A DNA stretch of 64,000 nt from Escherichia coli (GTDB lineage Bacteria > Pseudomonadota > Gammaproteobacteria > Enterobacterales > Enterobacteriaceae), in the NCBI RefSeq assembly GCF_030013595.1, contig NZ_CP122768.1. One strand, 5' to 3'. This document shows, in pieces, positions 15,880 to 17,062 of this stretch. How positions within the stretch are numbered: the stretch's first letter is position 1; each line of letters opens with the position of its first letter. Under the pieces are notes generated by a model, which saw only the letters and a list, made by a program, of their open reading frames with translations, did not search any database and had not been told where the DNA came from. The position numbers and the translations under genes are program-made.

Positions 15880-16463
15880 TATCCGTTGAAGGATTTACGC
15901 ATATCGGTAACGTCGGCAACGAGCCAGATGCGGGTACCTGACGGGAGTGAGATCATCGTCCCCTCCCGGTCAGTTCACGGATCAACAGCGTGAGCAGCTC
16001 TGGCGATGGATTTTCCAGCGTCATGTTACCGTGACGGAACTCCACCTTGCAGGAGCCGGCACTGACACTGGTCTGAGTGGAAGTGGATAAAGACGGCGCA
16101 ATGGCCGCCACCGGTTCTTTCTGCTCATCCGGCGTTATTTCTACAGGTAATAATTCAACGCCAGTGTCAGAAGAGGTCGTTACCTGAAGACGCCGTGATA
16201 TACGCCCTTCGTTCTGCCAGAGCCTGAGCCATTTGAACAGGAGGTTATCATTGATATCGTGTTCCCGGGCAATACGGGCAACAGAGGCTCCTGGTTGTGA
16301 TGCCAGTTCCACCATACGAAGTTTGAATTCATTCGAATAGTTTTTACGAGGTTCTTTTCGCCAGTCCTGTAATTCCATACTTAGATGTCCGTCTATATCA
16401 GATGGGCGTCTAAGTTACCAATTTTCGTCTGATGGCTACATACGGCGGTCAGTTTACGCTTAC
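15880..16463 (-). mobile_element. Truncated IS66-family fragment (terminal repeat + orf1 + first ~25 codons of orf2)
   Basis: End sequence ATGGCTACATACGGCGGTCAGTTTACGCTTAC at 16432-16463 is identical to the end of the nested IS66 at 55610-55641; orf2 breaks off near 15880. Confidence 0.7.
15953..16378 (-). CDS. IS66-family accessory protein orf1 (in truncated element)
   Basis: 141 aa, near-identical to ORF 55130-55555. Confidence 0.75.
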   Translation of the reverse strand: MELQDWRKEPRKNYSNEFKLRMVELASQPGASVARIAREHDINDNLLFKWLRLWQNEGRISRRLQVTTSSDTGVELLPVEITPDEQKEPVAAIAPSLSTSTQTSVSAGSCKVEFRHGNMTLENPSPELLTLLIRELTGRGR

Positions 16464-16680
16464 TGACAACGCGATGGCGGAGAGCATCAATGGTCTTTAC
16501 AAAGCGGAGGTAATACACCGTAAGAGCTGGAAAAACCGTGCAGAAGTGGAACTGGCCACACTCACGTGGGTGGACTGGTATAACAATCGACGATTGCTGG
16601 AAAGGCTGGGCCATACTCCTCCGGCAGAAGCAGAAAAAGCTTATTATGCTTCCATCGGAAACGATGATCTGGCAGCCTGA
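16464..16680 (+). pseudogene. IS3-family transposase, C-terminal fragment (truncated by IS66 insertion)
   Basis: ...NAMAESINGLYKAEVIHRKSWKNRAEVELATLTWVDWYNNRRLLERLGHTPPAEAEKAYYA is a typical IS3-family OrfB C-terminus; the track ORF's first residues are encoded by the IS66 terminal repeat. Confidence 0.6.
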
Positions 16681-16719
16681 GTTCACAGATAAAACACTCT
16701 CCAGGAAACCCGGGGCGGT

Positions 16720-17062
16720 TCAAACCTGATTCTGGAAAAGGACTTTGTGGATTGTTGCTATTGCCAGTGAGATTGAATGAAGTCGTTTTAACTCGCTTTG
16801 AATACGTCTTGCCCCCAGATTTCGCTGAGAACGTAACTCCAGAATCAGAGCGACTTCGCAAGTGCCGGTTTTCGTTGATGGTGAACGCTTGGGGCGACGG
16901 CTGTGGCTTTCCAGACCAGCGATGCCCTGAGCCAGATATCTGCGCCACCATTTTACGCAATGTGGGCCGAGAAATGCCACAGCGACGGCATACAAATCCC
17001 GCATCACCGGACGTTTCATAGAGTTTTACCCACTGTAGCCGCTGCTGAATTTCCCTGTTCAT
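16720..17062 (-). pseudogene. IS481-like transposase N-terminal region, frameshifted
   Basis: Two overlapping minus ORFs in different frames; HTH-type N-terminus RLQWVKLYETSGDAGFVCRRCGISRPTLRKM continues in the other frame; no catalytic domain follows. Confidence 0.45.

Follow-up and report, generated by a model that had tools for sequence, protein, structure and literature searches.

How did three broken mobile elements, of the IS66, IS629 and IS481 types, come to lie end to end at positions 15883–17074 of an Escherichia coli genomic island, and what does this pile mark? A sequence-only reading had described layered insertions at a recombination hotspot and a likely boundary between island modules. 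Sequence comparison was carried out on a 64-kb window, meaning the whole stretch of DNA that was analysed, and junctions were counted in 5,426 complete genomes of E. coli. On this evidence, the pile is very probably the inert debris of three unrelated insertion sequences, lying at the seam between backbone and cargo of an island of the TAI / OI-43/48 (SpLE1) type. By itself, it does nothing today. Feature coordinates are collected in Table 1.

Table 1. Features of the IS pile and its surroundings (positions in the 64-kb window)
Feature	Position	Strand	Remarks
Complete IS66-family element (tnpA, tnpB, tnpC)	12736–15439	+	UMNK88-lineage specific; NF033517, 475 bits
Left backbone flank	15440–15882	+	36% G+C; holds 60-aa acidic ORF 15471–15653
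ISEc23-like IS66-family left-end remnant	15883–16463	-	IRL, 5' leader, complete tnpA, first 25 tnpB codons
IS66 tnpB, first 25 codons, then truncated	15882–15956	-	ATGA overlap with tnpA stop; PGAP pseudogene
Orphan tnpA ORF, 141 aa, helix-turn-helix	15953–16378	-	Still open; NF047595 IS66-like TnpA; Pfam HTH_Tnp_1
IS682-type patch within tnpA, 61 bp	16235–16295	-	Segment-wise identity 100% to IS682 type, 70% to ISEc23 type
IS66 IRL, 32 terminal bases	16432–16463	-	Reverse complement begins GTAAGCGTAAACTGACC
Chimeric 82-aa ORF (from ORF list)	16432–16680	+	Starts inside IS66 IRL, reads into IS629 OrfB C-terminus
IS629/IS1203 right end, last 259 bp (nt 1052–1310)	16464–16722	+	OrfB C-terminus and right terminal repeat ending ...GGTTCA
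IS481-family internal 5' fragment (nt 29–379 of 1020)	16723–17074	-	Transposase N-terminal helix-turn-helix part
+1 A frameshift	16951–16954	-	AAAA versus AAA in two intact copies (T-run on plus strand)
Right flank	17075–17412		Leads into 202-aa ORF, PerC-like regulator, IbrB/IbrA
IS682, complete, nested in another IS66-family tnpC	53109–55641	-	PGAP name; sequence of both ends

The island and its flanks

The window belongs to porcine ETEC UMNK88, with which it agrees at 100% identity, and is an island of the TAI / OI-43/48 (SpLE1) type, well known in E. coli for tellurite resistance and adherence. In the matching UMNK88 region, PGAP lists the whole gene set that typifies such islands, namely cah and iha together with the ter and ure clusters. 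Over the segment holding the pile, O157 and other strains were 99.9–100% identical.

The left backbone flank was present in 852 genomes, and the backbone flank was 88–100% identical in the sampled islands. The right flank was found in 462 genomes, with at least 99% identity in 459 of them. Neither the 60-aa acidic ORF nor the 202-aa ORF had a match in Pfam, NCBIfam or PHROGs. The complete IS66-family element to the left of the flank shows no target duplication and stands in place of 156 bp kept in other strains (comparison with strain 09-00049); as regards its lineage specificity, only 11 genomes among the matches listed align from the first query base. The neighbouring 893-aa ORF (20746–23427) was considered as IEE, the IS-excision enhancer of SpLE1, and rejected, since its product is an SF1 helicase carrying DUF2726. 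The iee primer sequences (taken from PMC9397093) were likewise absent from the 64-kb window. Islands of this type integrate at a serine tRNA gene by means of a P4-type integrase and carry iee; here the island ends fall beyond the window.

An IS66-family remnant with one surviving end

The closest intact relatives of the IS66-type piece are plasmid copies assigned by PGAP to the ISEc23 family, with 94.3% identity over 581 bp. The match of these copies to the remnant ends at 15882/15883, past which ~17 further bases are perhaps homologous too, if a deletion of 13 bp is allowed for. The tnpB stub aligns to the intact copies and to positions 1–18 of Pfam TnpB_IS66 (E = 0.008), tnpC is absent and the element is incomplete, with tnpA its one complete gene; the overlapping tnpA–tnpB pair that is left agrees with the IS66-family gene order tnpA–tnpB–tnpC. 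The orphan TnpA scored 87.6 bits against NCBIfam NF047595, for which the cut-off is 74. At the one element end that survives, the reverse complement of 16457–16463 reads GTAAGCG, as expected of an IS66-family terminal repeat, and the eight bp adjoining the IRL are TGACAACG.

The 32-mer ATGGCTACATACGGCGGTCAGTTTACGCTTAC at this end has exactly two copies in the window, at 16432–16463 and 55610–55641 (chance expectation 0), the identity that the sequence-only reading had reported, and it is also present in an ISEc23-type plasmid copy. The second copy in the window belongs to IS682, which, like the remnant, is an IS66-family insertion into another insertion sequence with the same 32-bp terminal repeat. 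IS682 differs in being complete, with both ends and the 8-bp target duplication expected of the family (GAGAAAGA, at 53101–53108 and 55642–55649), whereas the remnant is another member, of 581 bp, with a single end. Because the remnant and IS682 (55060–55641) are just 84% identical overall, over 581–585 bp, the 32-bp match shows nothing more than conservation of the IS66 terminal repeat and is no proof that the elements at 16432 and 55610 are the same.

Within tnpA, the 61-bp patch of IS682 type is a trace of recombination, or of gene conversion, among members of the IS66 family, making the remnant a recombinational mosaic. A second sign of such mosaicism is the switch point in strain A36. This pattern agrees with recurrent exchange, through homology, between the remnant and live IS66 copies, by which DNA beyond the terminal repeat would also be swapped.

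The IS629 stub and its O157 counterpart

IS629/IS1203 sequence begins directly beyond the IS66 end, with 100% identity from 16464, in agreement with the IS3-family OrfB C-terminus placed there earlier. All 259 bases of the stub match IS629 copy B of strain E2865, and many plasmid copies are also 100% identical. The numbering in Table 1 was taken from an intact 1310-bp IS1203 in strain Z892, which sits inside the orphan tnpA with a 3-bp duplication, GAC. This identity and the terminal ...TCA end assign the stub to the IS3 family, IS629/IS1203. Its translation matches positions 313–369 of 369 in NF033516 (IS3-family transposase, E = 1e-16), and of OrfB no more than the final 71 codons are left (Pfam rve_3 positions 15–67). 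The orfA/orfB pair with its programmed frameshift and the DDE (rve) catalytic core are both missing from the stub, a fragment that cannot function as an IS.

A 259-bp cryptic IS629 overlapping ORF Z1647 has been described in O island 48 (and 43) of O157:H7 EDL933, where 62-kb and 217-kb deletions that remove ter and iha end at this cryptic IS629, by recombination with a newly inserted IS629 (Bielaszewska et al. 2011, Mol Microbiol 79:1024, PMC3064760). The EDL933 copy and the stub in the window have the same length and the same position in the same island type, both lying between the Z1640–Z1646 homologues (POTRA protein, helicase, IbrA/B, PerC and hypothetical) and the cah end. The UMNK88 window differs from O157 in its porcine ETEC origin and in the extra complete IS66-family element 443 bp leftward of the pile. 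We infer that the stub corresponds to the O157 Z1647 stub; the "putative transposase Z1647" of EDL933 would probably be the chimeric 82-aa ORF, a mapping based on the published length and gene order and on the 99.9% identity of the O157 locus to the window over 15440–17400, rather than on a Z1647-tagged record.

The IS481-family fragment

The third piece is 97.4% identical at the DNA level to an intact element (L006, 2473–3492) that carries a 323-aa gene and perfect 25-bp terminal repeats. On the minus strand, the transposase N-terminus opens at ATG 17062, and its 112 codons match positions 1–103 of 284 in NF033577 (E = 1.4e-12 for the second frame, and 0.007), a score that, with the DDE part gone, stays under the cut-off set for the whole protein. 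The frameshifted IS481-like N-terminus that had been noted on the opposite strand is thereby recovered, the shift being due to one extra A. Homology to the IS481-family element starts at IS nt 29, with 28 nt missing at the 5' side, and the 25-bp terminal repeat of the intact relative, TGTGTGATTCATAGACATCGTTTCA, was absent from the window at up to three mismatches. A 9-bp resemblance to this repeat at ~17163 was not above chance. No other piece of IS629 or of an IS481-family element lies anywhere in the 64-kb window; a simple inversion has therefore not carried the missing halves to a place nearby.

Junctions within the pile and across E. coli

The IS66 terminal repeat meets the interior of IS629 orfB exactly to the base at 16463/16464, with TGACAACG as target, and the IS629 terminal repeat meets the interior of the IS481-family transposase gene with the same precision at 16722/16723. 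Because they fall exactly at IS termini, both are taken as transposition junctions, the trace expected when one IS transposes into another. The outer junctions are non-terminal and represent truncations, of IS66 at tnpB codon 25 and of IS481 on its 5' side. The pile was not made by insertions alone, as at least two non-terminal truncations contributed; with this addition, the layered insertions proposed earlier are supported.

Among the 5,426 complete genomes, the junction of backbone with IS66 was found in 782, that of IS66 with IS629 in 549 and that of IS629 with IS481 in 461, and the compact three-part form seen in the window in 227, so that the counts are nested. A junction between the IS629 end and the iutA side of the aerobactin operon was present in 228 genomes. 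At least 88 genomes have the IS66–IS629 junction and lack the IS629–IS481 junction (549 versus 461), which indicates that further alleles exist.

The backbone keeps a conserved order of Cah/Ag43, GTPase, small acidic ORF and truncated IS66, past which genomes differ, with ter genes, cadB/ldcC, an ISL3 remnant with CBASS, aerobactin or PerC–IbrBA. The pile lies at the seam between this conserved backbone and the variable cargo. Strain LH85-a lacks the IS66 remnant and has, beyond its acidic ORF, an intact element of the IS3 family and a type I restriction system; in strain E2863 the backbone was lost through IS1203. A diverged, paralogous PerC–IbrBA module lacking the IS pile sits in a tRNA-Phe island. 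Lineage-specific IS events near the pile include the IS1203 in Z892 tnpA, the UMNK88 IS66 element with its 156-bp loss and an IS481-family element in the flank in strain A36. The proposed recombination hotspot and module boundary is borne out by the different cargo past the backbone, by these lineage-specific IS events within 1 kb and by the published deletions at the IS629 stub.

A proposed history of the pile

The succession suggested by the junctions would start with transposition of IS629 into an IS481-family element, followed by transposition of an IS66-family element into an IS629 copy; the remainder would then have been lost through deletions and homologous recombination. The IS66 end fused to the backbone is the most widespread feature (782 genomes) and would be the oldest, an age drawn from five inspected islands and the genome counts rather than from a phylogeny.

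Strain E2865 (NZ_AP018808.1) bears on how the compact form arose. Its backbone–IS66, IS66–IS629 and IS629–IS481 junctions are identical to those in the window, but ~11 kb, comprising iutA–iucDCBA–shiF and a second, longer IS629 piece, lie between the 259-bp stub and the IS481 remnant. Two IS629 pieces thus bracket shiF–iucABCD–iutA, with their last 259 bp identical. RecA-type recombination between these directly repeated pieces would delete ~11 kb and yield the compact IS66–IS629–IS481 arrangement; since the pieces are identical over their common 259 bp, a crossover trace is not left in E2865. The tight adjacency of the three remnants may accordingly be secondary, via recombination of two IS629 copies, and the 259-bp stub would act as portable homology for further deletions.

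We somewhat favour derivation of the compact allele from the aerobactin allele over the reverse. The reverse, in which a single IS629 entered IS481, IS66 followed and an aerobactin segment (circular or IS629-flanked) later recombined into the stub, is less probable and still a serious contender: such an integration would yield exactly the E2865 structure, and the compact allele and the aerobactin junction occur at nearly the same frequency (227 versus 228 genomes). It requires, however, a donor already bearing a 5'-truncated IS629 beside shiF. Loss of DNA between direct repeats is a simpler step, and experiments have shown deletion by IS629 recombination in this island (Bielaszewska et al. 2011, PMC3064760). 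A composite of IS629, aerobactin and IS629 that inserted once into an IS481 element also explains the terminal IS629–IS481 junction in fewer steps.

A further model treated the 22 kb between 16463 and an IS66-family tnpC fragment near terF (38552–~38830) as one circle that entered via a single IS66. It was rejected because the tnpC fragment comes from another, remotely related member of the IS66 family (67% identity, and that to ISEc8 tnpC only), because its flanking octamer, TCCAGAGT, differs from TGACAACG, and because no IS629 sequence adjoins it. A reciprocal IS629–IS66 junction of the ISEc23 type was not found in the complete E. coli genomes; the search returned only an ISEc8 insertion, on a plasmid, at the same octamer TGACAACG.

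Other explanations for the persistence of the pile

It is conceivable, at rather long odds, that the IS66 end, present in 782 of 5,426 genomes, serves as standing portable homology for cargo swaps (ter, aerobactin, PerC–IbrBA, CBASS, cad) with live IS66 copies, that tnpA is perhaps selected to stay open, and that TGACAACG within IS629 orfB is perhaps a preferred IS66 target.

Less probable again is retention of the remnant for a function, be it the orphan IS66 TnpA or the 82-aa ORF as a putative regulator or the IS66 end as a selected docking site for cargo. The tnpA frame remains open in the window, as it does in many genomes, the orphan remnants give pairwise dN/dS values of 0.13–0.6, and the backbone–IS66 junction persists widely while the cargo beyond the repeat varies between islands. 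The gene is nevertheless broken by an internal stop in strain 12690, by N-terminal truncation in GABEEC10 and by IS1203 in Z892, and the 12690 remnant gives a dN/dS of 0.61 against a live ISEc23-type copy. Low values are accounted for by patches acquired from live copies of IS66 that are themselves under selection; confounded in this way, they are not taken as evidence of function.

That the three pieces form one unusual composite element, the reading that would undo layered debris, is scarcely credible. The whole block is conserved at 99–100% identity in 227 genomes, but each piece matches a different intact IS that occurs alone elsewhere (94–100% identity), the block as such is not bounded by terminal repeats, its junctions occur separately in 782, 549 and 461 genomes, and in E2865 it is split by 11 kb. 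An assembly artefact can be dismissed: IS copies are a classic source of mis-joined repeats, but the same structure recurs in 227 complete genomes that many laboratories produced on many platforms, and work on O157 by PCR and sequencing describes a 259-bp IS629 stub at the corresponding island position (PMC3064760).

Meaning of the pile for island biology

IS remnants are a familiar feature of module junctions in pathogenicity islands. The pile examined here is typical of such junctions in its decayed transposase genes, its G+C step and its one-sided variable cargo, with no substantial difference. It is known biology, PGAP already annotating pseudogenes at the junction and the IS629 stub being already reported as a deletion crossover point, and it matters little beyond book-keeping and opens no new question. 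What the comparison adds is the precise make-up and chronology of a junction otherwise labelled as pseudogenes, and a tie between the 259-bp stub and the published deletion endpoint for loss of tellurite resistance and Iha in O157. Across E. coli, the same seam has the conserved backbone on one side and at least six different cargo sets on the other. This helps in typing such islands and in foreseeing the sites at which ter, iha and ure will be lost in IS629-rich strains.

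Composition of the IS pile

The compact pile consists of an IS66 remnant, a stub of IS629/IS1203 and a piece of an IS481-family element, and profile searches were consistent with all three assignments. The sequence-only reading had equated the 32 bp that end the remnant with the terminus of a nested IS66 further along. The repeat is exact, with no third copy in the window and none expected by chance, and corresponds to the end of a terminal repeat of the IS66 family (reverse complement GTAAGCG...). Although the terminus is shared, the elements are not the same: when the region was aligned to the window by local BLAST, 15883-16463 and 55060-55641 were only 84% identical, so they are different family members with a common conserved terminus. 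The second is a complete IS682 (PGAP name) within another IS66-family tnpC, with an 8-bp duplication, GAGAAAGA. The closest intact relative of the remnant (94.3% identity) is named ISEc23 family by PGAP.

The remnant is 96-100% ISEc23-type except for one patch, which is 100% IS682-type and only 70% ISEc23-type. In strain A36 the remnant matches that of the window up to 16295 and is then IS682-type to its end. As read from these alignments, the pattern shows that IS66-family copies underwent homologous exchange within the remnant; such exchange is a plausible route by which DNA past the terminal repeat could be replaced. Pairwise dN/dS of the orphan tnpA was 0.13-0.6, but these low values were not taken as selection on the orphan gene: patches have been imported into it, and other lineages show it with a stop codon, truncated or interrupted by an IS.

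Directly beyond the IS66 terminus, where an IS3-family OrfB C-terminus had been proposed, the sequence is 100% identical to many copies of the IS629/IS1203 3′ end, and the match places the end of the 259-bp stub at 16722. The IS481-like N-terminus on the opposite strand was likewise borne out, its frameshift being due to one extra A in an A-run. The intact 1020-bp form of this element has perfect 25-bp terminal repeats, and its own terminal repeat is absent from the window.

Features of the pile and its surroundings
Feature	Position	Strand	Remarks
Complete IS66-family element	12736-15439		tnpA (216 aa), tnpB, tnpC
Acidic ORF	15471-15653	+	60 aa; good ribosome-binding site
Inverted repeat	~15703-15747		downstream of acidic ORF
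IS66 remnant	15883-16463	-	ISEc23-like
Orphan tnpA	15953-16378	-	in IS66 remnant
IS682-type patch	16235-16295		in IS66 remnant
32-mer	16432-16463		exact repeat at 55610-55641
Chimeric ORF	16432-16680		82 aa
IS629 stub	16464-16722	+	nt 1052-1310 of intact 1310-bp IS1203 (strain Z892)
IS629 octamer	16464-16471		TGACAACG
IS481-family piece	16723-17074	-	nt 29-379 of 1020-bp element
A-run with extra A	16951-16954		frameshift
202-aa ORF	17413-18021	-	214-aa form in PGAP annotation
Helicase ORF	20746-23427		predicted 20747-23428
ShlB/POTRA gene	~23.7-24.8 kb		Z1640
tnpC 3′ fragment	38552-~38830	-	distant IS66 family; terminal repeat GTAAGCGCACCG...; truncates terF
terF	38880-39266	-	cut to 128 aa
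IS682	53109-55641		complete

The four junctions are of two kinds. Two lie exactly at IS termini, the signature of transposition, and agree with the layered insertions first suggested: at 16463/16464 the terminal base of the IS66 repeat meets nt 1052 of IS629, within orfB, and at 16722/16723 that of the IS629 right repeat meets internal sequence of the IS481-family transposase gene. The other two are truncations internal to an IS, at tnpB codon 25 (15882/15883, with ~17 more bases recognisable past a 13-bp deletion) and 28 nt inside the IS481-family element (17074/17075). Since the 64-kb window holds no further IS629 or IS481-family piece, the missing halves were deleted rather than inverted nearby. 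Each IS keeps one end, so the nested insertions offer no target duplications for comparison.

Identity of the island

Window positions 15400-17400 are 100% identical to the chromosome of the porcine enterotoxigenic strain UMNK88 (NC_017641.1) and to several further pig strains; O157:H7 and other strains are 99.9-100% identical starting at 15440. In the PGAP annotation of the matching UMNK88 region, the genes are those of the tellurite-resistance/adherence island TAI (= OI-43/48 = SpLE1), with cah, a dynamin-like gene and a GTPase gene left of the pile, and PerC-like, IbrB, IbrA, helicase, iha and the ter and ure clusters to the right. The pile itself is labelled as IS pseudogenes throughout (partial IS66 TnpB, IS66 TnpA, a partial 'integrase core domain' protein and a frameshifted partial 'helix-turn-helix' protein). 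Coordinates projected from NC_017641.1 run one base off from ~20746, which suggests a 1-bp difference from the RefSeq record somewhere at 17.4-20.7 kb.

Variation across E. coli genomes

Junction-spanning queries were run against 5,426 complete E. coli genomes, the resulting counts being nested. The backbone/truncated IS66 junction was found in 782 genomes, IS66/IS629 in 549, IS629/IS481-family in 461, the right flank in 462 and the whole compact pile in 227. That the truncated IS66 end persists in 14% of complete genomes with differing cargo behind it is among the least ordinary points here. The backbone junction also occurs in islands whose flank is just 88-97% identical to that of the window, five of which have the identical truncation point.

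Past the IS66 repeat, strains 12690 and Z1323CEC0003 carry the ter cluster directly, and A36 an ISL3 remnant and a CBASS gene (phospholipase), a defence system occupying the cargo position (locus L011, 3860-6400). GABEEC10 has cadB/ldcC and lacks the repeat itself; LH85-a, without the IS66 remnant, continues from the acidic ORF into an IS3-family element, which is intact, and a type I restriction system. The right-hand module (202-aa ORF, PerC-like, IbrB, IbrA) also occurs in diverged form in a tRNA-Phe island (L014), without the IS pile. This varied cargo, and the module's occurrence elsewhere without the pile, identify the pile as a seam between conserved backbone and exchangeable cargo, in line with the hotspot and module boundary originally proposed.

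The 202-aa ORF adjoins the PerC-like regulator and IbrB/IbrA in every inspected island with the module, that at tRNA-Phe included, and has no family in Pfam, NCBIfam or PHROGs. The strongly acidic ORF likewise had no match in these three databases; its 443-bp flank, beside the GTPase gene, is conserved in 852 genomes. DNA mimicry is known among small acidic proteins encoded near antirestriction genes. Full-length terF, truncated in the window, encodes a 413-aa TerD+vWA protein in 12690 and Z1323CEC0003.

The initial observation is correct, far beyond chance, and its interpretation holds in essence: the pile is a genuine, layered one, lying at a module boundary prone to recombination. Such a feature is typical of this well-studied island, has already been annotated and in part published, and shows no sign of any function except supplying homology.

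Continuing IS activity near the pile

In strain Z892 a fresh IS1203, which has a 3-bp duplication, interrupts the orphan tnpA; in A36 an IS481-family element, itself intact, lies ~90 bp to the left of the remnant. The complete IS66-family element at 12736-15439, specific to UMNK88 and relatives, replaces 156 bp found in strain 09-00049 and has no 8-bp duplication; it looks like an insertion followed by adjacent deletion, or recombination between two copies. On a Gambian plasmid, pE100416_79 (NZ_JBRERC010000002.1; L016, 4500-4600), the junction ...TGACAACG/GTAAGCG joins IS629 to an IS66-family element of ISEc8 type; the IS629 octamer is the one hit in the window, although the IS66 member differs and lies in the opposite orientation. 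This second insertion, also among the least ordinary points, could reflect two independent hits or an IS66-family target preference.

Deletions at the IS629 stub

In O157, a 259-bp cryptic IS629 at Z1647 is the endpoint of ~62.7-kb internal deletions and one 217.5-kb deletion, which remove ter and iha and arose through homologous recombination of this copy with new insertions of full-length IS629 (Bielaszewska et al. 2011, PMC3064760). Equal length, the fitting gene order relative to Z1640 and the 99.9% identity of the O157 locus indicate that Z1647 is probably the chimeric ORF and the published stub probably the one described here. Deletions driven by IS629 are well documented, as is their stimulation by IEE in strains carrying SpLE1; IEE was not found in the window.

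In E2863 (L015, 12400-23100), an intact IS1203 occupies the stub's position, everything from cah to the IS66 remnant is lost, a truncated aerobactin operon is bracketed by intact IS1203 copies, and the PerC module is also gone. The arrangement looks like the product of IS1203-mediated deletions on both sides.

In E2865 (L009, 1780-12960), the stub keeps its connection to the IS66 repeat and leads into iutA-iucDCBA-shiF and a second IS629 piece (~nt 290 to end), whose right terminus forms exactly the junction with the IS481-family remnant that the stub has in the window. The aerobactin operon (shiF, iucABCD, iutA) is thus bracketed at exactly the locus of the pile by two direct IS629 repeats, identical across their common 259 bp; the junction of the IS629 end with the iutA side occurs in 228 genomes. 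Recombination between two such pieces would delete ~11 kb and leave exactly the compact arrangement. The reverse, an aerobactin segment integrating into the stub, would yield the same structures and is somewhat the less probable direction. Deletion is modestly favoured because it needs no special donor, and because the terminal junction would be explained by one insertion of an IS629-aerobactin-IS629 composite into the IS481-family element. If deletion is the true course, the IS629 copy struck by IS66 would not be the one that struck the IS481-family element, and the seemingly simple nesting would be secondary.
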